DNA of 53,920 nucleotides, counting the filler, from Circinaria calcarea (lineage: Eukaryota): assembly GCA_051942165.1 (NCBI GenBank). It is 3 parts of 3 records of this genome, joined end to end, with 100 filler letters (N's around TTAATTAATTAA, not from the genome) between each part and the next. Parts side by side here need not be neighbours in the genome. Positions count along the whole stretch, not along the records: positions 1 to 17,918 come from JAVECS010000249.1; 2 more parts are not named here. The stretch is one strand, 5' to 3'. The translations under genes were made by a program, and so were the position numbers. This document shows, piece after piece, positions 1 to 47,227 of the stretch (the first letter of the stretch is position 1; every line of letters begins with the position of its first letter). The notes under the pieces were generated by a model. It saw only the letters and a program-made list of their open reading frames with translations, had not been told where the DNA came from and made no database searches.

Positions 1-245
1 GGGGGGAATGGGGGGGTTTTCGTAAAGGTGGATAAAAAAAAAGGGGGAGATGGATGCCCCGGGTTATATCTCATCAATTGCTCGGTAAAAAACTCCTCGT
101 AGCGACAAACGGTTGAAATCAAAGCCATTACGAGTGTTTGAAGAAAAAGGTGCTTAGGTATTAAAGAAATCTCCATCGAATTTTGTCCTCTCCTACATTT
201 GCAAATCCGCCAACTCCATCCGGGCCCCTTTATCCATTGTACCCA

Positions 246-2651
246 TCACCCTTTAACTCCCTTCCCCCCCCCTCCCAAGAGAATTTCGTACTTGCCAGAC
301 CGATAAACACCGTCGGCAGCGACCACGTCGATTTGCTTCCCCATGAAAATCCATCGCGGCGTATCTCTGGGCACACGGATAATTGTACACTTTCTAATAT
401 TCACCATGTTGCCAAGTTTGTCCTTTATTATTTTCTCGGGCCGGTCAAGGTCTAGTCGGGGGAATATTTTAGATTCTGCGTAAGCTAGTGCGTAATCTTG
501 GTATGTGGCGAAAAGGATTATCATATCTTGGGACTGATCTGACACTAGTTCGTAGTTTCCAGTCTCCAGGATATCACTCAGGACATACTTGCCATTTTGC
601 TTCCAAGAGGAAAGACGCTTAGCATCGCTGGGTGCCCGAACAATCAGGATATTGCTTGTGTCGACAGCCGGGTTCCGCCGACTTACAGCAAGTAGCCGTT
701 CAGGGTTGGAGAACTCTTTGTTTATTTTGACAGCGTTTTGCTGATCTTGAATTGTGGCGAAGAAAATGCCGTGTGGTACTTCGGGTAGTAACTCCGTTAC
801 CTTTGGTGGTTTCCCAGATGGCTTGTCGACAATTTTCAATTGACCCGGCTTCACGACGTCAAGATGAATTATCTGTAGTATCTCGGACCCATCTGAATTT
901 GAGATCGCCTCTCGCCGACTTTTAGCAGACGCCCACACGAGGTTAATATCGTCAAGGTCTTCCTGTCCTTGATCTCGTGCATCGAGTACAGCTTGAGGTT
1001 TTCCAAATCGCTTGTCCTTAGCCGTGGCATTACTGTAATCACCAATTGTGAGAAAGAACGGAATCGCGTCCTCTACTCCGTCCTGTACGTCCACCGTCTT
1101 AGGTTCGCCTTCAACGGGGTCTGGCTCCGGTTGATATTGCCCAGTCCTCGCAATCTTATCTGCCACTATTGCGTCATCTCGGCTGGGCACAGCGGAGGAA
1201 CCCCGAGGCATTTCCGTAGCCCAGACCAGTTTGATATGGTCAGTGTGTTTCACACCCTTTCCCCTTGCAATAGCTAAAACTTTAGGATTGATGAAAGCCG
1301 AATGCCTACACTCTGCATTGTCTAAATCCGTGCGTGTCAGGAAAAGAGGTTTCCTTTCTATAGGTTCCTTTGGTGAAATAGTAATGGTGTCCTTTGGCAG
1401 TAAACCCGTCCCGCGATAAAAGTTTTCGGAATCTATTACACTTTTGGCCGTAATTGGACCCATTAATCGAGGGGCGTTCGGCCAGACATAAACAACATCA
1501 ACATCGTTTAAAGTACCAGGAATCTCACTTTGCTTAGCAATCACAGCTTCAGGATTGGCGTACGCCGTGTTTATTTCAGTTGCCCTAAAGTAGTCTCCGA
1601 GGGTGCGGAAAACAGGTACCTTCGTTTGGGGTTGATTTTCTGGGTATGTTGTCACTGGTACCTCTTCAAAGTGTCCAGACTCCAATACATTGTTTCCCGC
1701 AATATCATTCAGTTTATCGCCATAATGCCTATACCGCATGGTATTTTCAGGCACTCGAATAATTCTTATGCCGTTGAGGTACGGTGCCCCTGCTTTCCGT
1801 GTAGCGTCTATATCTTTAGGGCTTCTGTATGGGATCTCGTCTTTCTGAGCCAATATCGCATCTCTCTGCGTAGCGAAAAGGAGTACAGTTTCCTTTGATA
1901 ATGTTTGCCCGTCCTCTGTTTGGAGCGGTAAGGTTGGTGATGGTGGCGGCGGTGGACCAGGCAGCCAGTCCAAAACGTCCACAAAACTTTTGGACTCCAA
2001 CACATCACTCGCTGCAACCCGGTCATTCACTTGCCCGTCTTCGGCAGTATATCGTTTAGCATCTTCAAATACCTGGATGATTAGAATGTCATCCGTATCT
2101 GTCGAACCTTGAAATCTCGCCATAAGTACATTATTAGGCGTCCCATACAAACGGTTTCGAGAAGTAGCCAGGTTGAAATGTCGAATTGTGGCAAATAGAG
2201 CGATTTTCTCCACTCGCGGCTTGTCTTTTGGATATCCGGGCGTCAAATCTCGAAAGGTACCTGAATCTAGTACGCCCTCGGCCGCGACACTAGGGTGCCG
2301 GTGACCGCCTTCATCATATGACTTTGCAGGGTAGGAGACGCTGATAATCCTAATAGTACACGCAGTCGTATTGCCTCCCTTTTGCGCGCGTAGTACGTCT
2401 CCTGGCGTGATATGCTCCTTCTCAGGGTCTAGCGTCTTAGCTAATTCGTAATCACGCAACGTGGCGAAAAGAGTGATCCTCCCCACAACATCCTTTTCCC
2501 GCGGAGCGGTACTGGCTACACGAACAATGTCAATTCCGGCAACATTCTGCTGACGGTCCTCTGCGGCAAGTACAGCTGTCGGGCTGGTGTAAGTATCGTC
2601 TCGAACTAGAGCGAGAATTCGATCCTGATCTGTAGCGAAAAGAGGTATGAG
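246..2651 (-). repeat. Nine tandem, divergent protein repeats (~60-105 aa)
   Basis: The motif hhF[ALR]TxxD..A......P..V...I.hh.V...A.R...VAAxxVLxSGx[FY] recurs, with units starting near 2651, 2480, 2205, 1890, 1620, 1353, 1065, 773 and 524. Confidence 0.9.
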
Positions 2652-4245
2652 GTCCAGGTTTGGGTCTGGTTCTTCCGGTGCGTCTGGCATCCTTACATCG
2701 TCGGGTAGATCCTGGTCGTTCTGTGATCCAGACTGCTCTATCTGCCAACCATGGTATGCTTTCCTCTGTTGAAAGTGCATTGCTCCTAGTGCTGGAAACT
2801 CCATCATCTCTAAGAGGTCAAGGAAAGCCACCCCATCGTTCGGTCCCTCATAATAGTAGTAATCGCCTGTAGTTGGAGATCCTTTTTTAGCCATATAATC
2901 TGCTAATCGTAAGATTCCTATGCAAAATTGGACCCACCACTCAAGCGCTTTGTTGTCCAGAGTGCCTGCATATGGGAGGAACTCAAGCATATCCGAGGAT
3001 GGCTGTGATGGGGCGGAAGAAGGTGGGTCGTTCACGACGAAATTAGCCCAGTTGATGATCAATTCTTCGTGGTGGCTCATGAGTCTTGCGAGATCAGAGA
3101 TGGTTGTCTGAGCGAAAATAGCGTCAACAGATTGTTGGTAGGTGAAGTCACCCAGAACAGATTTATCAGGAGGAAGTTCCCATTGACCGTTTCCGTTACG
3201 TTTGAGCTGTTTTCTGTTGGGCCGATAACCATCTCCGTATATGACAGCAATGTAGGCAAGGTGCTTGAGAGTGTCAAGGTCGAAGCCTTCCGGTTTTTCT
3301 GCACCAACCTGAACCCGTAGGCGACAGCGTTCGGAAGTGACCGCAGCATGGAGATGGGCATCTCTACCTTTGATGGCATTTAGATAGGCATTGATCTCAG
3401 AGAACGAGTCAAGTTCCGAGTCTAACACTCTAGAGACGAGTACGATACCATGAGAGGTCCCTAATCGTGTTAGCTAGAGCTAGAAAAGTCAGAGCAAAAT
3501 CAGCTGACATTCATTAGCGTTTGGATAATCCTCATGCTTGATATCTACATCTCCTTTCGGATAAGGCCTGTTCCCGATATGGGCAGGGCCACCTTCAAAG
3601 TCCAGGGAGCGAGCCCCAGCAATGAGCTTTTCGCGATCGAGGAGACCTTGCAGGTCATGCTGGGCAAGACGCCCAAGTTCCTGGTCGCCATAAACATACC
3701 ACCTTTGGGAGGCCTCAGCGTCACGTCGAATTTTTTGGAGGTGAATATCGGCAGCCAGGCTTTGCTTTTCTGGCTGAACTGTGACTTGGTCGACCTGGTC
3801 AATATCCATTGCTTCAGCCTCTCGGGCCGGTGGGAAATAGTCATAGTTGAGGTTACGGGGATTGCCCCTCAAAACCTCCTGGGCGATGTACAATGGCTCC
3901 GTACCGGTTTCCCTTCACTCAAGCATTTCAGTTAGTCATATGAGTTCAATGCAAAAAGGAGCAGGCGCCAAGTGGTCCTCGGCTTCGAAACCAAGATTAC
4001 ATCGGCGCCAGCGTCTAACATAATCCTTCTTGCTTGGCCTGTGACGCTATAGGCGAAGAGAAAGTACGGCGCTTGTCCGTCAGAATCTTCCTCACGTACC
4101 TGTGTTCTCCAGTTTTCAGTCCTGTGTTTTCTGTTCCTTGTGTGCCTGGGTTCGGCTGCCTAACTTCGTCGAGGAGTGTATTATGGAACGCGAATATCAT
4201 GTCCAAGCTGAAGCTAAACTTCGGCTTGTAGTCTTCGTTGAGCAT
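246..4245 (-). CDS. Degenerate amidoligase-like (Amidoligase_2 / COOH-NH2 ligase fold) protein with nine C-terminal ~90-aa repeats; probably 3 exons
   Basis: ORFs 4015-4245, 3489-3893 and 246-3428 join into one gene. Intron 3461-3508 (GTCAGC...GCTAAC...TAG) restores EWTSHGIVLVSRVL. A first intron ends near 3912 (GACTAAC branch); its donor is uncertain. Family-like motifs occur in order: FSLDMIFAFH, EPLYIAQEVL, WYVYGDQEL, GIVLVSRVL, CRLRVQVG, LKHLA, INW, EFLPYAGTLD..WVQFC. The 3' end lies in low-complexity contig-end sequence. Confidence 0.75.
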
Positions 4246-5218
4246 CTTGAGAGTTGAGACACTGTAGGAACAGTAAGGACGCCTCCGAGTGATTGATTCT
4301 TACACAACTGTTTTGATGTGCTTATGCTACATGTAGTGCGAGAAGGCCAGCTTTTCTCGCATCCGCCTGGAGTAGTGGCAGATAAATGGTCCATTTCACG
4401 AGACAAAGAGAGAAGATGCTTGCTAACCAAAAACGACAGATGGACTGACGTGAGGATCATGAAGATGAATGCATCCTCGGGAACAGTGATAGGAGGGGAG
4501 GAATGGCCGGAAATGGATCTTTGGTGTTCCGCTTTATCCTTTCTGAACGAGTTTCAGGCGGTCTAACAGAAACTTGACTTTCGAGAGAAACGGGCAAATC
4601 CATAGCATCTCAGGACAGTACCCCGTATTCGCTGTATTGCTCTTCCGTTGGTCAGAACTGCGACTCGAGGATGCTGTTGTAGGACTCGAGGACTACATCA
4701 ATGGATTATCTGAACCTTGGGTTAGGCTAGCACGGGTAGTTACCTCGGTTAAATACTTAATCTCCAAAGGGTATTATCAGGCACGCTATTCTAAATATGT
4801 AACGAACGGACTTGCAAGATAAATTCCGAGAATGAGATATGAGCGATGGTCGTGCACATGTGAGAAAGTCTGCTCTGCTCCGTAGTCATGTCTATTCAAA
4901 GGTTTATATTCGTGATAGACGCGTAAAGGGAAACAATATATCAGCCTGAGCCGTCAAGGCAATAAATCCTTCGTAGCGTACACGCTTCTCGGACACCCGA
5001 CAGCAACGTATGGCAGACCGATGCTCTGCAGGGGAGCTTACAGTACAAGCATGGATCGGTTAGTGAATCCACGTAGACAAACTAAAGAGTAAATCCTATT
5101 AGGGGTACAAAAGCATATATATCCATGTAAACACTCCGCCAGCACCTGAGTAACCCACAGTATGTATAAGTAAGGTACTTATCAAGATATGGAAATAGCC
5201 TCGAAACAAACATCTATC

Positions 5219-8200
5219 CTATCCGTAAAGTTCCTCCTCATCATCCCCACCAGTATCTCCGAAGTCGCCATCGTCACCGTCACTCGAGGGCTCTCGCACC
5301 ACTGCTTTCCCCTTCCCCTTTCCCTTGGAGCTCCCATTCGTAAATACATCCCCGTCCCCATCATCGCCACTCTGATAGTCCCTCGCTATCGATTTTCCCT
5401 TTCCCTTAGCACTCACATTAGAGGATGCATACCTAGCTGGGGTACCGTAGTCGTTGCTGGTGACATACGCCTCGTCGTCATCATCGTCTTCCCCGTCCTC
5501 GTAGTCATGTTCGGAGCTCCAATTCGTAGCGATGGCCGTCCCCTTACCCTTGTTTATGGCTTTGGTATTGTATCGAGGTTTGGGTTTTGACCTAGAATAT
5601 ACCGCCTGTCCCGTACCGTTCACTTTGGGATATGGCAGATCTAACTGTGGAGGTAGGTTGCCGCCTGTACTGCTACTGTTCAAAGTTGGTCCTTCGAAGG
5701 CCTTACGGACTCGTTGGTAGTGTTCGAGTTCTTTGGCGCTATGCATGGTCAGTTTGATGAGTGATTGTGTCAAGTATCCTCGTTAGTCTTACCTGACACT
5801 GCCAATGAGTTCTTGTTGAGCAGCATAGAAGTCTTCTTCGGTGACCACAACGGCGATGTCCTCCTTGATAGCATAATGGTCAAAGAAATACGCAGCGGTG
5901 ACAGGTACAGGCATTGCCTTGATCTTTGCATCAACAGCAGATGCTTGTCGAGTGATAGCTTTGAGCATCGCATCCGAACACAGAGCATACAGATCGGCAC
6001 CGGTATAAGTAAAAGGGAGGGACTCGGCCACAAGGCGAAGCGATAGCTTTGGGTGAAGGGTGAATTTCCGTGTCAAAGCCTCCAAAATGGTAAGTTGCTT
6101 GTCATGAGTATCAGATACACCAAGGTAAAGCATCTTGTCAAATCTGCCAGGTCGAAGGAGCGCTTGATCAAGCAGATCAGGCCGATTTGTGGCACCGATA
6201 ACGAAGACGCCTCCTCCAGCTTCGTCACCATTGCTCATACCATCCAACTCTGCAAGAAGCTGACTGACGATACGATCCATAACGCCACCACTATCACCTT
6301 GGTTTCCTCGCTTTGGCGCGACGGAATCGAGTTCGTCGAAGAAGACAACGCAAGGTCTAGCATCTCTGGCTCGCTGGAACACACGACGTACATTAGCTTC
6401 AGACTCGCCTATGTACATGTTGAGTAGCTCCGGTCCTTTGACGGAGAAGAAGTTAAGAGAGAATTCCGTAGCAATCGCCTTTGCTAGTAGTGTTTTGCCA
6501 GTACCCGGTGGACCGTAGAATAAAATCCCGCTTCGTTTCTTCATGCCTTTGGCGAATAGTTCGGGCCGCTCTAGAGGCAGTTGTATTGTTTCCATCACGG
6601 CATCCTTGACATTCGTCAAACCTCCAACGTCGTCCCAGCTAACGTTGGGGATTTTCGGAGCGCCGATAGCATCTGCGAAATTCTTACGGGCGGCCTCGAC
6701 GGCAAGGTCAAAGTCAGCTTTCGTGACAGTACATGTCGCTCCCCCGGAAACCAACAGGTCCCTTAACAAAAGAGCACCCGAATGCTCAGCGTTTTTCGAG
6801 TTCTCGGATCCCAAAGCCTCTAGACGTTCCTGTCGCGCGATACGAGCTCGCTCGACAACATCGACCAAGTCACCAGCAACAAATGCTGCAGTCTTGACCG
6901 CTATAGCTGAAAGATCAACATCAAAAGCTAATCTTACCCCTTGAGCTTGGATGACCTCCTCTAAAATTCCTTCTCTCTCGCCTTCATCAGGAGCTGAAAC
7001 CTCTAATTCATGAGTGAACAGACTGCGAATGTCTTCGGGGACCTTGTCGATATCTGTTGTCGTCATAATTATAGCTTTGACATCCTCTACAACATCTTTG
7101 AGCACCGAACCCATTCGGTCGGCCGTCAGTGCCTCCAAGTGTCGGATTAGGGGCACGGTAAACTCTGGTCCACAACTCATTACCCGATCAACTTTGGCTT
7201 TGAGAGAAGCTTCTGTCTTGACATCTCCTCCCCCTGCACCACCTTCTGTAAGTATATCATATGCGTCGATAGGGAATACGTGAAGGCCAAGATCGGCGCA
7301 TGCACGTGAGGCTAAGTGGGCTTTACCAATACGTCGCTGAGTTGAGTGAAGCAGGATAACAATTGGCTTCAAATCCAAATGAAGTGTACCAGCGGCTGTA
7401 GCTGCTGCTAGAAGCTCACGTATTCGGCGTCGAAGAGGCGTGATGTGTAACCTATCAATACTTGCTGAATGATGCACGGCAGGGTTGGTAAGGATAGATA
7501 ACCTAGGGGGACGTCGAAGACCAAGGTAGTACTCCCAAGGATTTCCTATGGATGAGGGTACCTTAGACTGTTCCGTTCCGACTTGCACCATACGTGTGGT
7601 TTTCGGCTCGATAGACGCAACACCCCAAGTATCTGTTTCTTTCGGACGGTTTTCATCATCGGATGACCTCGTAACTTGTCCAACCTTAAACCAGGCTACC
7701 CCGGTCTTTCCCTCTTCTAATTGATTGCCCATGGTTGGACTTATCAAGAGCTCCTCAATCTCATCTGCTACCTCGGAACTACCTTCGGAAAGGATCTTAC
7801 TAACATCAATATCCATACTAATACTGACAAGGTCACCCTTTCGGAGTATGCGACGTCTTCGCTCAAAGTGTCGCTTAAGGCTTGCCAGTATGCCTGGCTG
7901 CATGGCCTTTTCAGTAGACAGCGGCGTTGCAAGCCTCAGCAACGTAATTTCTTTCGCTATCGGCGGACCTAGCACACTATCAATCTTCGATTTCACTGGC
8001 ATTTTGGCGTCTTGCGATTCTATCAAAAGTGGCATGAGCCTCACGGTCGACGGATTTCCAAGGTTTGCCAGTAAAATTGGTGAAAAGTAAGCCTCTGGAA
8101 GTGGTCTTCGGGTTGAGAGGGCTGTGCTAGATCTTCTCATCGTAGCTTTTCTCTGCGGGTTGTCAGGATTGTTCTTAGGTGTTAGGTCTGCCAAGCTATA

Positions 8201-9700
8201 TAGTTTAACGGCTCTGAATTCATCAGCTTCCACGCCGTTATCCTCGAATGGCTTAGCACCCCAGTAACCATCATTGCTCCTTCTTGAGTTCTGCGAGGCA
8301 TAGACTTTAACCCAATCGCCAGAAAAGCACCCTAACCTGGATAGCATTGTAACGTCTATGAAAACTCTTGCTTCTTCATCTTCATCACTTTTTGGTTGTG
8401 GAAATAAGACACTATCTGGCACTGATCTGAGCAGAGCCTTGGCCTGAAAGGGCTTGGCAGGAGCTTTTCTATCATTTCGTAGTGTCGTACTTGTGAAGTT
8501 CGAGTAGACAGAGCCAGGGGTGTTAGCTCCGCTGTTTCGGCCAAATACCATTCGAGGAGTAGCAGAGGTAACCGTTGTTGTCGCTCCTGGGCCTGATAAC
8601 GGCAGACTGGGAGGGCTCAATGTAATTAGGTTATCGGACAAGTCATCGGAGAGACTACTGTTCTCTGTGTCAGAACACTCGGAGTCTGAGCTGGAATACT
8701 TTTTGAGATTTTGCCTCTGCATTTTAGTCTGCGGGGGGTCGCCATTCTCCAAGGAAGAGGAAAACTGCTCAGCAGAGGTATCCTCGGCCTCTTCCGTAGG
8801 GATTCCGGGAGACGGTGATCCCTTTGGGAGCGACGTACCGTATTTCATAGTCTCCCCATTAGAGACTACGTCGATCAAGATTCTCGTCGTCGAACTCACG
8901 AACCCTTGATTGACAGGCTCACACATGGTGACTCTGACAGGGAGGAAAGCGACATGCGTGATTGGATGAGCAGGTAGGGGAAGTGGCAGTAGGTCACCTT
9001 GATGGATAATTCTCATAGAGGCTATGGATCTTCGAATAGCAGCTCTTAGACGATTTTGTTGATCCTGGCTTAATGACACCTCTTTCTCATAATCTGTCCC
9101 ACTACTCTCATTACTCGGCTTTCCGTTGACCTTCCCTTTACCTTTCCCAACTGACCCATGTGATTGGAAGCCACCGCCAAATCGCCTTTGAATCTCCTCA
9201 TGTTTTTGGAGAGCGTTTCCGTCAACTCTGACGACGATACGGTCCAAGGTTACAGGCTGTGTGTCCAAGACCAGGATTTTAAAGCCAAGTTTGGCTACGG
9301 CAAAGCCACCTCTTTGCTGGGAGTTCTTGATAAATCCCTGAATGGACAAAGATGAAGGCGGAAAACGTATCGAAGGAGCGGTTGAGGCCTTGGCCGGTCC
9401 ACTTGGAGTATCCTCGGACTTGACTGGTATTACCACCCAAGACGCATCTTCCAGCAAGTGCGGAGAATGGGGCCTCCAAGGAGTTATGGCAACGTGTTTG
9501 GCCTGTCCGTCGGTACAGCCATGCTGAAAGTGAGCAACGGAGCAACCAAAGAGCTCCGCAAAAAGTTCTGCCGATACAAGCCCAACGTCGCCCTCGCCAT
9601 GATTCTCTAGGATCAACTTAGCAGATAGGGGTGCTCTATCCGTCCTTCTCCGCCGCCGCCGTTTCTTACGGTGCTCCAAAGTCACGTTCGTGTCTTCCAT
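5219..9700 (-). CDS. PEX6: Peroxisomal biogenesis AAA ATPase Pex6 (~1475 aa, 2 exons)
   Basis: Degenerate D1 (HSTQRRIGKA) and intact D2 (GPPGTGKT, FFDELD, ATNRPDLLD..LRPGRFD); IGAPKIPNVSWDDVGG is typical of Pex6. Intron 5739-5792 (GTAAGA...CTGAC...TAG) joins ELIGSVS to AKELEHYQRVR, so ORF 5219-5773 is the last exon. Confidence 0.95.
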
Positions 9701-9800
9701 TAGTATTACCTTTTACTTGAAGATGGTTCAGCACAAGCTCATGAATTCGAATGGTCGTCAACTGCCTCCATACTTTATACCTCGATCCTGCTAATAAATG

Positions 9801-9806
9801 CCGAGG
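9801..9806. promoter_or_regulatory. CCGAGG/CCTCGG FarA/CTF1-type fatty-acid response core
   Basis: Exact CCGAGG ~100 bp upstream of the PEX6 ATG, in the divergent PEX6/lipase promoter. This core is the established Far-regulon motif for peroxin and lipid genes in filamentous fungi. A single hexamer could be chance. Confidence 0.4.
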
Positions 9807-10322
9807 TCAAATGAGATGTGATGCTAAGACAGGTTATTGCAACCAACACTTACCGCACAAGACTGCATCAATGTTGCTACTGAATGTCGAGGTATATGTA
9901 CACATTAAATTATAACTTATTAGGCAAACTGTTAATGCGCAAAGCAGATGGTATGTGTAGTCGTCCTCATTCATTCGACATTTGTTCCTGCATCCAAACA
10001 CACCTTACGGAGAAACGACAGGAGCGTTTGATCGTCTTATTCGAAATTGATTGGTCCGAGTTCCGGGCAATATGGTAAACAATTAATTTAAATTAGGCCT
10101 CCTTCACATGCAAATCTATAAATGGCGGGAAGATAGACATTTACACCACCGTCTACTAGATACTCGGTAGCGCGACAGGGCCTACCGGGATGTGAGCGCT
10201 ATGTCATTGCTCTTCGATGGTCATCTCTACTACGCCTGGCTTTTCTTTTGCTCGAGCAAAGACCATTTTGCAGCATTCGGGGAGAGCCGATTATTCAAAT
10301 GCTCCCTCCCTAGAGTAGTGAG

Positions 10323-12610
10323 ATGGCGACAAGAGCCACAGAGTCCAAGGCCGAGTCTGCCACTCAGTTCGCTCGACAAGCCGAACGGCTTTCTCTCCTA
10401 ACACAGCGCCGGCAGAATGAAGATTCATGTGCGACTGCCGCCGTTGAGGCTCAATTCGTGACTCCTAGAGACCCAGTTGTCCGGACCGCGAACGGAGGAC
10501 GCTTACCCGCCGTACCCTTGGACGAGGCTCGCAAACTCAATGAGCTGAAAGATCAGGTCGAACGAGACTCAGTAAACGGACCTACGGCCGCGGCTGATGG
10601 AGGTCAACAGAGGCAGCAGGACGGTGATGCGCTCGCGCAAAAGGCTCCGAGTGAGGAAACACTCAGTGGACCTGACCGTGAAGAGGCGTCCGAATCCTCG
10701 ACGAAACCAGAGCCGACCTTATATACCGCCTTGCTTCCTTCAACCACCCACCCTCTTTTCCCCTCTCTCCCATTGTACGGGCCACCAACTCTAGCGCGGG
10801 ATCTCCAATGTGCCTTCTTCCGAGTCTCGTCTTCCGTTTTATCACTATGCTTTCTAGGCGTCATTGTCCTTGGTTCGATATTTACAAGTATACCCCTGAT
10901 GTGCCGGCATGTTGGCTTGCGCCTTACATTCCGAAATCCCAACGCGCGCCGGCCTTTTCACGCAGAAGAGGAGAAACGGAAACACATCAGACAAGAACAA
11001 GCCAAGGCATGGAAGCACCGTCGACGGCGGAAAAGCAGTGTCGCTAGGCACATGGAAAATTGTGAGGAAGGCGCCGGCAGTGAATTCGAGCCTACGGAAG
11101 GTAGAAAAGACCCCCTAATTTGTGACGTGGCATACTACGCTCGTAGGGTGGGCTTGGACGTCGAAGAGTTCAAGGTTCTTACCGAGGATGGGTTTGTCCT
11201 TACATTATGGCACGTCTATCATCCGAAAGAATACACTCCTGCCTCGTGCGAACGTCGCGCTTACAGGCAGCCGGAAGTCTTCCCAGAGGGACATGTTGCA
11301 GCGGGTCAGACCCATGGCGCTACCGGCTCGCAGTATCCGAGTGGGAAAAAGAGGTATCCAGTCCTTCTCGTTCATGGTTTGCTACAGAGCGCTGGTGCAT
11401 ACTGCTGTAATGACGACGACAGCCTCGCGTTTTACCTGTGTAAAAGGTGTGACTTGTGCTCCCGATAAGGTTACGAACGCTGACCTTCGAAAGTGGCTAC
11501 GACGTTTGGCTAGGTAACAATAGATGTGGGTTTGAGCCTGAACATCAACTTCTCGAGTATCCTGATCCCCGAATGTGGGCATGGAATATCCGTCAGATGG
11601 GTGTGATGGATCTTCCCGCCCTCATTTCTCGTGTCCTTTCAGAAACGGGGTTTGAGAAGCTAGGCTTGGTTTGCCATTCGCAAGGTACAACAGAGGCATT
11701 CGTTGCACTGGCAAAGGAGCAAAGGCCAGACCTTGGCAGCAAGATTAGTGTCTTTTGCGCATTAGCACCTGCCGTCTACGCTGGCCCACTCATTGGAAAG
11801 ATGTACCTAAAATTCATGCGCATTATTTCAACGAGGATGTTTCGCGTGTTCTTCGGTATACACGCATTCATACCCTTTATGATGACTATGCATTCGCTGT
11901 TGCCGGGCAACTTTTATGGCGCTTTAGGGTATCGGGCCTTCTCCTTTCTTTTCAACTGGACCGACGAGCGTTGGGACCAAGGGCTCCGCGACAGGTTTTT
12001 TCAGTTCGCTCCTGTATACGTTAGTGCAGAAAGTATGCGGTGGTGGCTTGGCCGAGAATGCTTCGCTACGCAGAAGTGCATACTCGCGACAAGAGAGGAG
12101 GCAGAGCAAGAGGATGAGGAAGATGAAGACGGAGAGGAGAACTATTGTGTACATGAACGAATTCACCCCACTGAAAAGTCTGGTGACGATAGCAAGGGTA
12201 GCCCGACTCGGTCCATTGGCCGGACCGCTTGGTACGATGAGCAAATCCCTCCTATAGCGCTCTGGATCGGTGGATCGGATGAACTAGTCGATGGGAGGAG
12301 ACTGCTCCGCCGGTTCGAACGGGGTCGGGAACCCTTTGTGCGTATTGTCCATTCGAAAATCATAGAAGAATATGAGCATCTCGATTTCCTATGGGCGTTG
12401 AGTGCATCATACACTGTTCACGCGGAGATACGGGATATTTTGTTAGCCCCCCTCTTACCCGCACCCTGACACTAGAGTCTAGATGGAACACTGACTGAAC
12501 CATATAGGTGGAAAACCGCGTCCTCGGAATCTCGGGGCGTGTGCCGCATCCCCAAGGGATGCGAAGACGTCGGTATATGGAAGGATCCAAAGAGGTGGGA
12601 AGCAGCATGA
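10323..12610 (+). CDS. Alpha/beta-hydrolase lipase, sterol-esterase (Yeh1/Tgl1-like) family; 3 exons
   Basis: Motifs TEDGFVLTLWH, VHGLLQS, GYDVWLGNNR, nucleophile elbow CHSQG, GSDELVD and YEHLD; one N-proximal TM segment. Introns 11447-11493 and 12442-12507. The last exon (LWKTASSESRGVCRIPKGCE...) is missed by the ORF track. Confidence 0.88.
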
Positions 12611-13685
12611 TTATATCTAGGGATATATACATATGTACATATTAGGCAGGGAACCAGACTACCCCATTTAGGAGTTCAATTAAAACATAGAAGCTATTAA
12701 GCGTTCCATCGACAACTTGCATACCATTGACAAGTGATCCCTCCGCGGCGAAAAAAACCCCCACCAAGTAAAGAAAACATTTCTCAAAACCCACATGCTC
12801 TTTCCTATCCTCGACGCTCTGGTAATGTTCCCTACAATTAAGCTACCCCCTTGGCCGATTCCTTTACCAATCTTCCACCTTTCACTTCTCAAACTCCCCC
12901 CCTTTTCCTCTTAAACCCTCCCTCTCTCTTCCCTTTTGAAAAAACCACTCGAAACTCCAAAACATCATTTCGAATCCAGCATTTTCCTATCCTTTAATTT
13001 CAAAGTCGAGGGTGGTGAGTGCGCGTTCCCAATGGCGGAGCAGATGGGTTAAATGGCGTTTAGGAGAGCATTAGAGGGGTTTGTACAGGGAGTGCTACGG
13101 CGTTCGAGTTGAAAGGTTGGGAGAGGGGAGGGGACTGACAGAATAGAGTAGGAGAATAAGAACAGTGGGAAGGGGGACAAGGAGATAGGATGGGTAGGTA
13201 TACCGGAATCTTGAGCCAACGGGAATGAGTAGAATCGTGTGAGTGGTTATTCGGTCTAGTGTGGACTGATGTTGGTAAGGTAGAGAGGACTGAGGGATTC
13301 AGATGGGTTTAGCTGCTTGGGCTAGGGTAGGTACTCTCGAAGTCTAGGTATTGTGTCGTCGTAGCTATTTCTTTCGGTTTGACGACTTTAACATGGATGT
13401 CCAGATTATGATATGGCTCGCTACCAGAGTGTAGTCCAGAACCCATTGGGACCAATTGATGGCACTAAGATATTCTACACAGGAAAGAAATCACACACGT
13501 GCTCTCTGTCGGACCCTACTTTTCGAACACAGGATTCCGAGAAAATGCTAGGAAATTTCTGTCATCCATTTACCTACTGCGGATTCTTTTCCCTTCCATC
13601 TTTCGCTTCAGGGACTCCAAGCTCCATCTGCAAAGTCTCATCCCGAGAGCTGTACCGCTAGAGGAGGCTCACGTTCTTCAACAGC

Positions 13686-14629
13686 ATGACTACGGAAGCG
13701 AAGGTGCCAACGATCACAAAATCGAGCATGAAACCTGCGATGGACTCTTCTGAGTTAAGTGAGTCCCTAGTTCAGATCCTGTCATGACAGTTATAGTGTC
13801 TGAGAAATCCTAGTGGGCTGACTTTTCTGCCAACAGTCACCCTTGACGAATTCTGCTCTCGCTTGAATCCTAACCGGGTTACTTTTCCTGGATGTCCGTT
13901 GTCTCTTCCATGCGCCACAGGTTCGGTTACCGAGAGAATTGTTAGGGAGATGTACAACACGCATTTGGGCGAAGTACTCGAGGTGCTGGACCAGCATAAA
14001 ATCCGTAAACGCCGCGTCGACCTCGTTTCCATCTGGAAGTGGGACGGACCTAAGAAGCCAACTCTTCAGATATACGCCGACGATGAAGGTATTACCTCTT
14101 GGCCGACGGTAGCAGAGCAGCTCTACAATCTATTTCCCGAAGGCATGCCGAGGGCTTTCAACTGGAGCTGCGAGGTCCCAAACGTATCGACATATATGCC
14201 TTTCCAGAAGCGGTTGCACCGCAGGACTGTGAATATTTCAGTTCCAAGGCTCCACAGCTGGACAACATATTGCACCAATCCTTGGGAGATGATCTTGAAG
14301 CGTTTGGATTGTACATGTGCGGGGATAAAGTATCCGAGGCCACGTCTGGACCGCTGAAAACAACCATTTTGATCTACGTCAAGCCCAGGGTACGACATGA
14401 TTGGGCCGGCATCATGGCTTGTGCCCGAACCATAATCTCGACTGATCGGGTTGCAATCTGGTTCCAAGAGGCCCAGATACTCGATCTGGTCCAGCGAACT
14501 GCTTCCGAAGAAAACAAGAGTTTGGAGGAGCACATTAGGCGAATGAGAGCAGAGCGTAGGCTCAGTTTCAGGTTCCGCAAGATTGTCAAGAGTATTTGGC
14601 GAGGGCCGCGCATCGAAAAGGGTATTTGA
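13686..14629 (+). pseudogene. Frameshifted hypothetical gene with an internally duplicated module (pseudogene or sequencing error)
   Basis: ATG 13686, intron 13759-13836, then ORF 13863 frame. The protein-like sequence switches to the ORF 14099 frame near 14133-14140 (tatttcccga). Confidence 0.55.
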
Positions 14630-15221
14630 TTTGAAATATGCCGATTTGCTTTGCCAGAGGAAAAACATTAGGGGGGTTTGTGTATCAGAATTACTCCCAA
14701 GAAAAACATGCGAGGACTTTACGCACCAGACCCTATCTCTGTTTGTGGAAACTCTGTGACCGACTCATACGATTAGCTTGCCATAAGCCAGAAGAGTTTT
14801 CTCACTCTTTATGCCTACAGCAGCAATTACACATATACTATGCACTTATAACAACGGTTGAACTCCTATAGTCGATGGCGACCTTGTAAGTGCATGTAGA
14901 GTACTCCAACGAGGTCGAGTTATAAAAGCTCGTCAGGACTAATATGCATTGGAAAGAGATATGTCATGCCCCTGCATTCTGGCAATGAAAGTTCATGGGT
15001 AAGAAGTAATCAAATATAAACTCCTAGATGCTCTGATATATACGAAAGGTAGAAATCAGATTGATAAGCCTTCTCCTCAGCTTCATTCAGAATCGCATGA
15101 GTGCAATTGTTCCGACTTGCCAGTAGTAATCCCAAGTTGCCACTAAGCAAGCGGGGTAAATTTGACGCGCACACGCAGTTAGCGCCGGGCGGGAATCTTC
15201 GGCAGCCGGAGAAACCCTCTT

Positions 15222-15259
15222 TTATCTCCTTATCTATCGGACGTCCCCGTAAGTGATAG
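15222..15259. promoter_or_regulatory. Cluster of four HGATAR (AreA/NIT2-type GATA) sites
   Basis: TTATCT 15222, TTATCT 15230, CTATCG 15234 and TGATAG 15254 lie within 40 bp, ~290 bp upstream of an amino-acid permease. Confidence 0.5.
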
Positions 15260-15534
15260 GACCACCAGCATAAAAGCACCGAGAGAGTGGTGGGTATGAG
15301 AGAAGAACCCGTTTTGCCCCTCCTTGCCAACCTCGTTCGCGGAGCTGGCTCTTATTGGACCTGCCATTGAGAGATAGTGTGGTCCGCCTTCTTCGTCTGC
15401 ATCAATCTAGCCTGGAACATTACCCTATATCTATAATGACGCCCCCTCGCAACAGTGCCGTGCCTTCAAGTCCCTATTCCCGCGAATAGCAGGGTGGATT
15501 CTTCGTCAAAAATACCTACAAAAACCCTCCCATC

Positions 15535-17377
15535 ATGGCTGAGTCGCGCGGATATAGTATCTCTTCGGCGCGGAGGAAGTCAGTCGCAGAACATGCCGTA
15601 ACTTCTGTACTCAGCAGCGGAGAAGTACCGATCTATGAGCGCGACTTGACCGCGGACGACGAGGTACTGGCAGCCCTGGGATACAAGCCCGAATTCAAAC
15701 GGGAATTTAGCCTGTGGACAACTTTTTGCGTCAGCTTCGCCGTTCTGGGCTTACTTCCTTCGTTCGCCGCGACTTTATACTATGGCATGGGGTACGCAGG
15801 AACGCCGGGAATGGTCTGGGGTTGGCTCATCGCGATGGTCTTTATTCAGTGCGTGGCGATGAGTATGGCCGAGCTATGCTCGTCTATGCCAACTAGTGGA
15901 GGGCTCTACTACGCGTCTGCTGTGCTGGCTCCACCTGGTTATGGCCCATTTGCTGCTTGGGTAACTGGCTGGTCAAATTGGCTGGCTCAAGTTACTGCGG
16001 CTCCATCCGTGGATTATGCTCGTAAGCATACTATGAGGTACAAATGGAAATATAACACTTACATCTTCCAGTCGCTGCCATGGTTTTAGCTGCCGCCTCA
16101 ATCAACAGTCCAGCCTATTTCCCGGAGGCGTGGCATGTGTTCCTTCTGACGTCGCTACTCATGCTCATTCATGCATGTATTAGCAGCATGCCAACAAGAT
16201 GGATCGCAAACTTCAATTCTGTTGGATCTTCTTTCAACATGATTGCCCTCTTCATTGTAATCATTATGATACCCGCCGGTACAAATAGAGAATCACAAGG
16301 GCTGCCACGCTTCACGCCATCCTCACAGGTGTGGGGCAACCTCTACAATGGAACAGATTTTCCTGAAGGACTTGCTGTCTTGATGTCGTTCGTTGGAGTT
16401 TTGTGGTCGATGAGTGGGTACGACAGTGCCTTTCACCTGAGCGAAGAATGTGCCAATGCCAACATCGCCTCGCCGAGAGCAATTGTCTTGACTTCGGCGA
16501 CTGGTGGACTTTTTGGTTGGTTTCTTCAGCTCGTCGTCGCCTATACGGTTATTGATATCCCCAGCGTCATCACTTCCGACCTTGGGCAGCCTTGGGCAGC
16601 GTATCTACTTCAGGTGATGCCCCAGAAAACTGCTCTTGCCATCCTCGCTCTTACGATCATGGGCGCATTTTCTATGGGCCAGGGCTGCATGGTGGCTGCC
16701 TCTCGGGTCACCTTTGCTTACGCTCGTGATGGTTGCTTTCCCTGCTCCTGGTGGATTAAGCGTGTCGATCGGCATACACAGACTCCTGTCAATGCAGTCT
16801 GGTTCAATACGGCCATTGGCATTTGCATGACTCTATTGATATTTGGTGGTACTGTTGCAATTGGCGCCATCTTTTCCATCGGGGCTGTTGCTGCTTTCGT
16901 TGCATTCGCCATCCCTATCTTCATTCGAGTTTTCTTCGTGGGAGATAGGTTCAGACCCGGACCATGGAATCTGGGCAGGTTCAGTACCCCTATTGGAGTC
17001 ATTGCCTGTGCGTTTGTGCTTGTCATGGTGCCCGTACTGTGCTTGCCCAGTCTTACAGGCGCAAATCTTGAGTACGTCCTCATTCTGATTTTCTTCAGAT
17101 ACAAATTTACTAACCAAGACTCGCCAGCCCATCGACGATGAATTGGACATGTCTCGTATACGGGGCGCCCATGCTATGTGCCGTGATGTGGTGGGTTGTA
17201 AGCGCGCGCCACTGGTTCAAGGGGCCGAAAGTCAACATCGAGCATCAGATACTCGGAAGGGAGGAAAATATCATGTATGGCAAGGATGGGAGTGACAAGA
17301 ATGGAGGGTCAAGCGCCAATAGTCTCACTAAGGACATGCGTGATCTATCCGATCGAAAAGCTACAGATTTGGCTTGA
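15535..17377 (+). CDS. APC-superfamily amino acid/polyamine permease (Uga4/Tpo5-like); 3 exons
   Basis: Motifs LGYKPEFKREFS, MAELCSSMPTSGGLY, GYDSAFHLSEE, ASRVTFAYARDG and MNWTCLV...WFKGP; ~12 TM segments. Introns 16022-16071 and 17072-17127. Confidence 0.92.
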
Positions 17378-17582
17378 TCCAAGGGCTCTCATTGTACAGC
17401 TGGAACTCTGCATAGCCATAGGACCGTCCATCGTACCCTTTCTATTTCATATACATGGATGTATTTATTGTTCCAAATTGAAAAGCATCAAGGGTATCCT
17501 GTATTAGGGTCTGACCTGAGATCCAGTTTGACAACGGCTTCTTTCCCTGTGCCCGAAAATCCTAACCTTAACTTTAAGATGT

Positions 17583-17777
17583 TTTGCTCAGGTAGCTCCC
17601 ATGACCAAGCCCTCTGAGCACCCTGAGCCAAACCCAATACTCAGATGGTTCTGATGCCAAGCTCTCTGAGCATTCTGAGCATCGGCGGTGTAGTTTCCCC
17701 CCGCCTCCGGTGTCACATGTCAGTAGTATGGCTGTAACGCCATAACATTGCTCAGTATGCTCATGGAGGTGAGCAAA
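17583..17777. promoter_or_regulatory. Cluster of TGCTCA/TGAGCA motifs (Mac1/CuRE-like) followed by a TATA-like element
   Basis: Seven exact TGCTCA/TGAGCA hexamers in 195 bp, bounded by inverted TTTGCTCA (17583) and TGAGCAAA (17770); TATATA at ~17792. Confidence 0.55.
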
Positions 17778-17918
17778 GTGAAGCAACGTATTATATAGGC
17801 AGGCAGGCTATTCCCGCTCTTTAAAATAGCATGCTTATGTCTAGACACATACGGAATAAACAATAGACCAATATTACTGTTCCGGTAATCGTGCACCACG
17901 GGAGTGAACTCTATCCCT

Positions 17919-22692: not shown

Positions 22693-25245
22693 TCATTGGC
22701 CGGACTCTAACACTGGCAGCAAAGGATCACCCATTCGTATACCACCGACACCCATCTCCCAGGCAACTTGCTCGATTGACTCGCCCGCGGGCTTGTTCGG
22801 GGGTGTGTTCTTTGCCAGCACCATGCGTACAAACTCTGCGAGTAGGAAAAGCTGCTCTTCCAGCTGCGCCCTCCCGCCGAGCTCATCAGCCTTGATGTGT
22901 CGCTCTTGCAGGTCTTGTTCACGTTTCTCGGTCAGTAACTCCAAGACTTGAGCAACCTTTGCCAGATCGATTCTATCATCCGAAGCGCTTCGTACTCTTT
23001 GCCGCCGGGACTTCGAAGTCTTGGTTTTCTCCTGCTCCATTCGTGCAACTTGCAAAGAAATCATGCGCAAGGTACTTAGATCTGGATACAAATGGAAATA
23101 GTCCTTGAGGGCATAAAGCGCCACAACGGTTCCCTCGAGATCGTGGGCTAAACAAAAGCAGCGGATAATCTGATCGTATAGGTCTCGACTGAATGTATCG
23201 CGAGTAGTATGCTGTGCTTTATGATTCAGTTTGGAAAAAAAGGTAATCATGTCACAGAATATGTAACGAGGAGTAGGGAAGTTGGCTAAGTGATGCGTCA
23301 CCCTGCCGAGGTGTGCTTTCTCGCAATCCCACAGGCAGGCATACGTTTCAAGATCAGGTCGTACAACGTTGGACATATCCCGGTATGTCTTCCACGACGT
23401 TTTGTAGTTTCCGCGTCGCAATTCTGCATAGAGGATGTGGTTCATGAAATACGCGTTGGGTGTGATTTCTGCCAGAGCAAGATGAGTCCGTAGGTGTTCG
23501 ACATGTCTCAGCATGCTGCGGCGCTCATAGTAGAGGAGGAGAAGCGAAAACGTCTCAATTGTAGCTGGCGGAACAGTGCGTTGCAAGTGAGGTGGAATAT
23601 GAACTTGGGGAACTTGTGCTTCCACTGGCTTGTGGTGGTTCTCGCCGCTGTTTACGTATCGTTTCGCAACAAGTTCTAGTCTCTTGTGAATCATGGCCCA
23701 ACCCATTTGCAGTGCTTTCTTTGCGCTCTTAATGTTCCCACTCCGCAACCAGGCTCCCATGATCCCATTCAGATGCTTTGGGTCAGGTTTGACATTACGC
23801 TGATACATCAGCTCTATTACTGACGCAGCTGCATCCACCTCGCCCATGCCGAGCAGTTTCTTCATCCAACTACCGTAGAAGAATTTATTTTGAAACTTCC
23901 GGGGTAGGACTGTCAACGCTGTCAATGAGACTTTCGAGAGTGATGGGGCGTCGAGGCTTTGAGACTGCAGACTATCGACCAAACCTAGCGATGTCCGATA
24001 AAGTTCGCTAGAATCATAGCCTGAAGTTTGACCAACAAGCATCAGGTCCTTGAAAACCGCCAGTGCAAGCTCTTTGTGGCCAGCGTTCAAGAAGCACATG
24101 GTTATCCTATCGTAGTCATCTAACGTGATGTCGGATCCAAGATCCTCTCGTAAGCGAATATAAAGAGCCCAGGCATGCTTGAGAGCATCATCGTTATGGC
24201 GTTGAACCCAAGCTGCAATAACCGGAATCAAAGTTCTGGCTCTCGTCTTGTCCCGCACATTCAAGATACCAAAGGCGAGTTTCTCCGCTTTTTCAATGCG
24301 GCCGCCAGATGAGTAAACTCTTACACCTAGGTCTTCGGAAGCTTGAGCAGTATCTTTGTTTGCGCGAAGCTCGGCCTCGTTGCTTTCCCACTGTCGTATA
24401 GCTTCCTCGTAACGACCCTCCAGTAGTAAACATTCAATCAGGGTCATCCTCTGAGAGACAGTCAAATGTCGGCCAGCCTCCACCATATCATCCAAAATTG
24501 TTCTTAAACGAGCCGGTCGGTCTCGGTCGGACTTCTGAGCTCGATATTGGCTTTCCCATAGCACATCCCAGGACGTATCCGGAATCAACGATAGGAATGG
24601 AGGTAGGCTTTGCTTGCATCGAGTATACCATCGCCATAGGTTTTGTTGAGCAACTGAGTCGGTCAGGTTTCTCGAAACTTTGCTTAAAGCAGAATTAAGA
24701 TGCCGGAGGAGGGGAGCTTGTAGAAGAGGGAGATATAGTTTAATTTCTAGGTCGTTTTGATTTGGCATATATGCTGCGGCAACGCCCTTATTGTTCTGTA
24801 ACTCTCCTTCCGTATCATCGGAGCCACAAGGTAGTGCATCTGGCAGATGCTCCGTCTCTGAGAAGCTGCCTGTACTGTCTGTTGGGTCGTTTGTAATAGC
24901 TTCCTTCACTTTGCTCCGGTCCTCCGGTGACAGTGGAATTAGAGACTTCCCGGTCTGTAGATCTTGGAGCTCCTGCTCCAGCTGCGAGATCCTCGCCCTT
25001 AGCTCTTTTGCCTCGTCACCATCTATATCCTCAGGTTCTATGGGTTTCCTGTCCACGGAGCCAGGAAACAGCTGCTCGTACCACCGTACCGAGACCGGGG
25101 ACCGGCCATTATCGTCCTTGAAACTTGGCTTGGAAGACGTAAAGACTGGCCTGATTGGCAATCCCCTTAATAGCGACTCAACCTGCTTACGTGGCACCAG
25201 GGAAATATGGCATTGACGTACTGCGCCTCGAATCAACCTTTGCAT
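22693..25245 (-). CDS. Mitochondrial pentatricopeptide-repeat (PPR) protein
   Basis: 850-aa ORF with a presequence-like N-terminus and PPR-like helical units (AASVIELMYQRNVKPDPKHLNGIMGAW, PATIETFSLLL, ITPNAYFMNHIL, VRPDLETYACL). Confidence 0.75.
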   Translation of the reverse strand: MQRLIRGAVRQCHISLVPRKQVESLLRGLPIRPVFTSSKPSFKDDNGRSPVSVRWYEQLFPGSVDRKPIEPEDIDGDEAKELRARISQLEQELQDLQTGKSLIPLSPEDRSKVKEAITNDPTDSTGSFSETEHLPDALPCGSDDTEGELQNNKGVAAAYMPNQNDLEIKLYLPLLQAPLLRHLNSALSKVSRNLTDSVAQQNLWRWYTRCKQSLPPFLSLIPDTSWDVLWESQYRAQKSDRDRPARLRTILDDMVEAGRHLTVSQRMTLIECLLLEGRYEEAIRQWESNEAELRANKDTAQASEDLGVRVYSSGGRIEKAEKLAFGILNVRDKTRARTLIPVIAAWVQRHNDDALKHAWALYIRLREDLGSDITLDDYDRITMCFLNAGHKELALAVFKDLMLVGQTSGYDSSELYRTSLGLVDSLQSQSLDAPSLSKVSLTALTVLPRKFQNKFFYGSWMKKLLGMGEVDAAASVIELMYQRNVKPDPKHLNGIMGAWLRSGNIKSAKKALQMGWAMIHKRLELVAKRYVNSGENHHKPVEAQVPQVHIPPHLQRTVPPATIETFSLLLLYYERRSMLRHVEHLRTHLALAEITPNAYFMNHILYAELRRGNYKTSWKTYRDMSNVVRPDLETYACLWDCEKAHLGRVTHHLANFPTPRYIFCDMITFFSKLNHKAQHTTRDTFSRDLYDQIIRCFCLAHDLEGTVVALYALKDYFHLYPDLSTLRMISLQVARMEQEKTKTSKSRRQRVRSASDDRIDLAKVAQVLELLTEKREQDLQERHIKADELGGRAQLEEQLFLLAEFVRMVLAKNTPPNKPAGESIEQVAWEMGVGGIRMGDPLLPVLESGQ

Positions 25246-25398
25246 GAATTGTCGGCCGTCGCAACTTGGATTGACTGTGGACTATTCTAGGAGGGTTTTT
25301 CTGGTAGAAATGAGATCATCGGGCCTTGGCGGCATGGGACGCGATAATCCGTTGGAACACCTGCAGAAGACGCGACTCCATGCTCAATATTGATATAA

Positions 25399-46657: not shown

Positions 46658-47227
46658 ATAAGCACCTTGCTCCGCTGTAGCTCATAGCTTCAGGATTCGT
46701 TCTGGGTTCTCATATGTCTTGTGCTTTGTTGTCGCCGGAAAAAGATTCCTGTACGAGCACGAGTGAGGATATCCTCATTCCTTAAACGGGATGGGACCTT
46801 GATTAGAAGGTGTGAAAAATGATCGACGCTTTGGAGGACTTTGTCGGTAATGGTTCTCTTTCGATAGAATATGTGGAATGATCTCCCTGGAACGGCATGT
46901 TTACGGATTAAGTAGGGTGTACTTTCTTAAAAGTCCCATGCTTATGCTTCGTTGCGTATTTGAGTCTTGCTCTCGAGGTGAGACGGCATGTCATTATGAC
47001 ACCAATGCTGTCTTTTCTTTAAGAATAGACTCTCCAATGCAAAATTGTCCTCGATGCATTCGATGCCTTTTCAATCGCGAGTGCCCGTGATAAGCGAGAT
47101 GTGAAAATTTACAGTCCCAAATTTCTGGTTCGCCACATCGGATTTTCCTCCATTGTATCAACATATTGTAACCGACTAGGCCCTCGACTTTATATTGAGG
47201 CTATATACATATACCTGTATCTTTAGG

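Follow-up and report, generated by a model that had tools for sequence, protein, structure and literature searches.

A tandem domain array in Circinaria calcarea

The window analysed here is a 53,920-nucleotide stretch, filler included, of the Circinaria calcarea genome (assembly GCA_051942165.1), made of three parts joined end to end, the first of which (positions 1 to 17,918) comes from JAVECS010000249.1. It is a eukaryotic, fungal-type chromosome segment, with Pfam families in 14 of the 25 long frames scanned. On its minus strand lies an open reading frame (ORF, 246..3428) of 1060 amino acids (aa), or 1075 codons from stop to stop, that carries nine tandem copies of one domain of about 78 aa. 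An earlier note had reported nine copies of an unrecognised repeat domain in this region; the minus-strand placement, the exons that probably lie upstream and the amidoligase-like character of the N-terminal part, all described below, go beyond it.

All nine unit starts quoted in that note are found in the ORF, at residues 261, 318, 409, 515, 604, 693, 789, 887 and 970. A hidden Markov model (HMM) profile of the nine units, searched against the ORF, returns exactly nine domains with independent E-values (i-E-values) from 1.6e-15 to 2.1e-33. The likeness between units, on which the repeat claim had been made to depend, is significant in a leave-one-out comparison, in which each unit scores 31.4-63.0 bits against the profile of the other eight. 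As a control, 1000 shuffles were scored per unit, and the top shuffle score never exceeded 8.7 bits. A unit size of about 90 aa had been given, and this stands for the period, which takes in the linkers (start-to-start spacing of full units, 83-106 aa), but not for the domain, whose core is 72-83 aa. Unit 1 had been called truncated and is so; at 57 aa it ends before the last two strands and the helix that follows them. The C-terminal block ascribed to units 2-9 is present throughout, unit 7 included, but is strongly diverged in unit 7. The linkers, described as Pro-rich, are 0, 11, 27, 11, 17, 18, 17 and 5 aa long, and the seven non-empty ones consist to 71-100% of P/E/D/K/T/S/G/Q (Pro, charged or small polar residues).

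The copies have diverged widely from one another. Pairwise identity between units is 18-41% (mean 26%), and a maximum-likelihood tree gives them long branches of 0.5-3.9 changes per column. The DNA itself shows no repeat: Tandem Repeats Finder (TRF) returns 0 rows, and repeat finding yields 15-40-nt traces over the LFAT..D codons only. All three observations agree with the proposal that the copies are old, and together they indicate that the duplications are old or that the copies have diverged fast.

When the six-frame translation of the window was searched with the nine-unit profile, only one 14-bit stretch was recovered outside the ORF. It is a 22-aa match to helices 1-2 at 46685..46774 on the minus strand (14.2 bits, E 0.0021 within the window). 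Its frame has 30 codons and lies just downstream of an eIF4A-like gene. We judged the match to be probably chance, although it might conceivably be a decayed unit fragment instead.

Predicted gene structure and surroundings

No ATG lies close to the 5' end of the ORF, and two upstream open segments join it in frame. The repeat gene is probably spliced, with two introns and a predicted product of 1254 aa of which the array makes up the C-terminal two thirds (Table 1). Both predicted introns begin with GT and end with AG, and each contains a branch site of the CTAAC type. At 187 nt, intron 1 is long for a fungal intron and in comparison with the 48-nt intron 2, and an extra micro-exon within it, or some other 5' structure, is possible. 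The donor of intron 2 is weak, which would fit a chance ORF or a decayed pseudogene better than a real gene. We find it extremely unlikely that no gene is present: the frame runs for 1075 codons without a stop, the GC content of the genome being about 48%, the fold-defining residues are retained in all nine units, and the GC content of third codon positions (GC3) is 0.46 in the repeat gene and equally 0.46 in the neighbouring PEX6 gene. Intron 1 (3913..4099) also contains short open segments in other frames.

Table 1. Features of the repeat gene, in order of transcription (positions in the window)
Feature	Position	Strand	Basis or remark
Predicted whole gene	join(4245..4100, 3912..3509, 3460..249) + stop 248..246	minus	1254 aa; in frame, no internal stop
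Predicted exon 1, start ATG at 4245	4100..4245	minus	first ATG past in-frame stop; GTACGT donor at 4099
Predicted intron 1, 187 nt	3913..4099	minus	GTACGT...ACTAAC...AG
Predicted exon 2	3509..3912	minus	open frame 3492..3914; splice phases match exons 1 and 3
Predicted intron 2, 48 nt	3461..3508	minus	GTCAGC...GCTAAC...AG; sole in-frame GT-AG pair; donor weak
Exon-3 part of the N-terminal amidoligase-like region	2754..3460	minus	ESM Atlas on 2655..3461
Acidic, Pro-rich linker ahead of unit 1	2655..2753	minus	sequence reading
Unit 1, 57 aa (strand 1, helices 1-2, strand 2 only)	2484..2654	minus	leave-one-out 39.7 bits
Unit 2 core, 80 aa	2244..2483	minus	leave-one-out 51.1 bits
Unit 3 core, 79 aa, modelled unit	1974..2210	minus	leave-one-out 63.0 bits
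Unit 4 core, 78 aa	1659..1892	minus	leave-one-out 55.4 bits
Unit 5 core, 72 aa, short strand3-strand4 loop	1410..1625	minus	leave-one-out 31.4 bits
Unit 6 core, 78 aa	1125..1358	minus	leave-one-out 35.7 bits
Unit 7 core, 81 aa, diverged C-terminal block	828..1070	minus	leave-one-out 55.8 bits
Unit 8 core, 78 aa	543..776	minus	leave-one-out 51.9 bits
Unit 9 core, 83 aa, 5-aa insert between helices 1 and 2	279..527	minus	leave-one-out 39.9 bits
Gly/Lys-rich 10-aa tail + stop codon	246..278	minus	sequence reading

Pfam families identified in frames of the window include PEX6, carbamoyl-phosphate synthase, ORC3, Nop14, LETM1, adenylate kinase and the DEAD-box helicase C-terminal domain. The surroundings of the repeat gene are housekeeping genes with no obvious variable island, and a classical allorecognition locus is therefore not favoured. 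Between the repeat gene and PEX6 runs a 187-codon frame (5219-5782, minus strand) with a Gly/Lys- and Asp/Glu-rich low-complexity product and no Pfam family. Elsewhere in the window, an open frame of 862 codons (22696-25281, minus strand) has no Pfam family at E<=1e-5 and by eye has a helical-repeat (PPR/TPR-like) look.

Searches against known families and structures

The units had been said to match no known repeat family, and this is borne out by the searches. Scanned singly, none of the nine units has a Pfam match at E<=1. The whole ORF, scanned at E<=1 against Pfam-A (models up to 2025), gives only two sub-threshold strays that lie off the unit boundaries, Pterin_4a (12.3 bits, cut-off 26) and DUF2120 (11.7 bits, cut-off 25.3), and both were rejected, as was an HD-CE match below its cut-off. 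Eight domains from the relatives described below fare alike, with two sub-threshold strays, YorP (0.043) and S1CSD-TOTE-2 (0.082), each in one of 17 domains. PHROGs and NCBIfam contain no match for the units; phrog_17449 (0.24) and the Hfq and MdtP rows of NCBIfam were below cut-off. Against PDB sequences, phmmer and profile searches gave no match below E 0.068, and the Hsp70 chains, from E 0.068 upwards, were likewise rejected as below cut-off, together with a Mab-21 chain (0.83).

Structure searches with the models presented in the next section led to the same outcome. No PDB chain was found at a Foldseek E<=0.001 (0 of 80 and 0 of 69 chains listed, best E 1.5 and 1.1), none of 201 BFVD models reached this threshold (best 0.65), and VIA-align returned no structural neighbour of the unit. 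The literature yielded no account of the unit domain, nor of any fungal amidoligase bearing repeats like these. Judged by these comparisons, the unit appears to be a new domain family, its sequence family being undescribed in every library queried, and its fold may be new as well. The domain could already be catalogued under some name, in an InterPro member database, among AlphaFold DB clusters or in a recent paper. The searched collections are poor in fungi, and the relatives, none of them named, all come from ENA or Logan assemblies, as would be expected in that case. Given that neither current Pfam models nor the literature yielded the domain, we regard a prior description as unlikely.

Predicted fold and conserved positions

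An AlphaFold2 model of unit 3, computed from a 17-row alignment of the nine units and eight outside domains, has a mean predicted local distance difference test score (pLDDT) of 96.8 and a predicted template modelling score (pTM) of 0.86. It consists of a strand (residues 2-6), two helices (9-18 and 25-33), three strands (44-48, 53-55 and 61-66) and a last helix (68-73), giving the order strand-helix-helix-strand-strand-strand-helix. A two-unit model of units 8 and 9, from a 4-row alignment, has this order in both units (pLDDT 78.8, pTM 0.48). The earlier note had pictured the units as independently folding alpha/beta beads on a string. Independent folding is supported by the confident mixed alpha/beta model of unit 3 and by the recurrence of its element order in units 8 and 9. 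The string is consistent with the Pro- and charge-rich linkers and with the pTM of 0.48, which, shallow as the 4-row alignment is, would be expected if two beads had no fixed mutual orientation.

Columns kept in at least 13 of the 17 rows were taken as conserved and mapped on the unit 3 model. Three positions are invariant (17/17 rows): Phe6 in strand 1, Ala15 in helix 1 and Pro25 at the start of helix 2. Leu5 accompanies Phe6 in strand 1, and Leu14 accompanies Ala15 in helix 1. Thr8 just ahead of helix 1 and Asp11 in its first turn are conserved at the classical capping-box spacing. Helix 2 starts with Ser/Thr/Asn before Pro25 and also keeps Val28, Ala31 and Arg32; further conserved columns are Ile42, which immediately precedes strand 2, the strand 3 residue Arg53 and the turn residue Gly59. 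Surface positions vary freely, and Cys is nearly absent. As placed on the model, the conserved positions are of a structural type, namely core hydrophobics, a Thr-x-x-Asp helix cap, Ser/Thr/Asn-Pro and a Gly turn, and no constellation among the conserved columns resembles a catalytic one. Arg53 and Asp11, each kept in 16 of 17 rows and spanning all three architectures described below, are the sole candidates for a conserved functional site. With conservation confined to structural positions and with variable surfaces, the units would read as a scaffold or binding module rather than an enzyme.

One idea of what such a module might bind comes from its topology. A type I KH domain has a similar order of elements (strand, two helices, strands, helix), and the strand-helix-helix-strand-strand-helix order within the unit resembles it, a likeness of element order rather than of alignment. 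The small single-unit proteins described below also have a conserved basic N-terminal region, which would suit a nucleic acid, a nucleotide or a metabolite as the ligand. However, the unit has an extra strand, and in none of the 17 rows is there a GXXG between helices 1 and 2 (columns 19-24). There is no Pfam match to KH, and no KH or other nucleic-acid-binding fold is among the Foldseek rows listed. We therefore consider binding of a non-protein ligand to be improbable.

Relatives and their domain architectures

The nine-unit profile, searched against 1,835,955,588 representative proteins, gave 10 matches at E<=0.001, of which one reached E<=1e-10. Nine of the 10 are credible relatives, each with a single copy of the unit. 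The other match, a bacterial multi-repeat protein (P0011, E 6.2e-4), was rejected, with an hhalign probability of 11% and a beta-rich repeat of its own. Eight of the nine relatives are small, unnamed proteins of 218-420 aa with a common layout: a basic region conserved at the N-terminus, low-complexity spacers rich in acidic residues, the unit itself and a motif conserved at the C-terminus. Four further clusters of this small family came from a second search, which was word-based. Neither Pfam nor the PDB gave a match for these proteins, their N-terminal region and C-terminal motif included, and on this evidence they are an unnamed family in their own right. Across the small proteins (P0004-P0010 and P0012-P0016), the basic region is about 95 aa long and the C-terminal motif about 25 aa. 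The ninth relative (P0003) is larger, at 868 aa; its unit occupies residues 3-75, and a HET domain (PF06985, E 1.3e-32) begins at residue 179. By Pfam, HET is absent from the window ORF and the upstream exons, and among the relatives it occurs only in P0003.

One branch of the tree (support 86/76) has all nine window units on the same side, and the members of the small family group together as a clade (support 99/99). Unit 1 is the window unit nearest to the outside copies and has 46% identity to the copy in the HET protein. No protein with at least two units was found among the searched collections, which are poor in fungal genomes and from which the window protein itself is absent; the rarity of the unit is for this reason not established. 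No names are attached to any of the 31 members read. The domain appears to be fungus-only so far. A search for homologues of the whole ORF (lengths 583-1855 aa) found none among 8000 scored candidates, and residues 1-258, compared with shorter proteins, had no homologue among 1025 candidates. Scans of metagenome contigs gave 103 pattern stretches with the ORF protein and 368 with the small-family alignment, and 0 were confirmed in either case.

These architectures bear on whether the nine units do anything beyond taking up room. A passive spacer or stalk, setting distance or bulk with no specific ligand, would account for the strong divergence of the units (18-41% identity), for conservation at structural positions only and for linkers that vary from 5 to 27 aa. 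Yet two other architectures retain just one copy of the unit, for which spacing makes little sense, and Arg53 and Asp11 persist in 16 of 17 rows across all three. We find a pure spacer unlikely.

Two kinds of fungal protein offer a comparison. The HET-associated domain (HAD) and the lectin-fold domain of Podospora Bh are restricted to fungi and fused to HET (PMC10890737). The unit, too, is known so far from fungal-type proteins only and in P0003 shares a polypeptide with HET, and like HAD it is absent from Pfam. Compared by description, HAD is beta-rich and lies C-terminal of HET, whereas the unit is of the alpha/beta type and stands at the very N-terminus; in the window, moreover, the unit occurs without HET and in nine copies. 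The ANK, TPR and WD40 arrays of fungal NOD-like receptors (NLRs) described in PMC9815663 are also tandem arrays in fungal cytosolic proteins with HET-bearing relatives. They differ in being built of 30-45-aa solenoid repeats with high internal conservation, whereas here whole domains of about 78 aa alternate with linkers, identity is 18-41% and TRF gives 0 rows. No Pfam match to ANK, TPR, WD40, NB-ARC or NACHT was found in the window ORF.

The N-terminal region

A possible identity for the part of the protein ahead of the array, about 455 aa in the predicted spliced product, comes from language-model features. In the ESM Atlas, the segment 2655..3461 scores 0.94, with recognition 2386 and 207 shared features out of 256. 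Every one of its 30 matches is an Amidoligase_2 cluster, the top one having 398 members, mainly from Ascomycota. The whole ORF gives a weak pointer in the same direction (score 0.90, recognition 1847). The N-terminal part thus groups with Amidoligase_2 (PF12224) clusters by these features but differs in having no HMM match: the PF12224 model gave no row at E<=10 for any exon translation, the exons being scanned singly and not spliced, and the PHROGs and NCBIfam HMMs gave no amidoligase match in this part even at E<=10. Several positions of what we take to be the Amidoligase_2 motif may be substituted. We regard it as a good lead, from language-model features only, that the N-terminal third is a strongly diverged and possibly catalytically altered amidoligase-like domain. 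The segment 2655..3461 would be either a very diverged member of Amidoligase_2 or an artefact of the feature search. None of the listed clusters is reported with a repeat array of this sort. Some ascomycetes are reported to have expanded amidoligase domains (PMC3158057).

If this kinship is real, the units could be the substrate of the domain to which they are fused, that is, acceptor or carrier domains modified in cis, a conserved side chain being, for instance, the site of amide ligation. Protein-modifying amidoligases are known in general, and the fusion of an amidoligase-like domain to nine modules with an almost invariant Asp and Arg would be in keeping with such a role. Against it, no HMM confirms the kinship, the Asp sits at the position expected for a helix cap, and the single-unit relatives carry no amidoligase. 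Modification in cis is, in our estimation, very unlikely.

Proposed role

Taken together, our results lead us to favour, with moderate confidence, a fungal domain present here in nine folded copies on flexible linkers, the units being non-catalytic binding or scaffold modules and the whole a multivalent adaptor behind an amidoligase-like head. Each copy would fold alone and be joined to the next by a flexible Pro- and charge-rich linker, in what is probably a cytosolic protein. The array would present or tether the N-terminal amidoligase-like domain, and the same module would be reused singly in small proteins and ahead of the HET (TIR-like) cell-death domain. HET is described as a cell-death-inducing, TIR-related domain typically paired with variable recognition domains (PMC10890737, PMC9815663). 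It is from this pairing, along with the autonomy of the modules, their flexible linkers, their purely structural conservation and their reuse as single copies, that we infer a non-catalytic interaction module.

A bolder version of the multivalent adaptor is conceivable, though we give it little weight. The unit might be a recruitment (adaptor) domain of a new fold in fungal cell-death or conflict signalling, and the nine-valent array might gather single-unit proteins, HET executioners included. This would call for contacts between units and would place the array on a catalytically altered, amidoligase-like sensor. The closest analogy would be the assembly of signalling hubs by the death-fold or TIR adaptors of animals. 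A prediction of a two-copy unit 3 complex scored 0.00, with the chain folded without the unit alignment, its own fold uncertain and no controls, and speaks neither for such contacts nor against them.

Should our model be correct, the unit would be a compact domain of about 78 aa with neither a named sequence family nor a structural neighbour in the PDB. It would have been put to use in three architectures or more: as a nine-copy array behind an amidoligase-like domain, singly before HET, and singly in small, largely low-complexity proteins. What we rate as new is the domain family, and fungal domains that lack annotation are common. Nonetheless, it would be a new entry for domain catalogues and a handle on uncharacterised fungal proteins. 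It would also connect an amidoligase-like protein, in a way open to testing, with the HET (TIR-like) cell-death machinery, for which few upstream partners are known.
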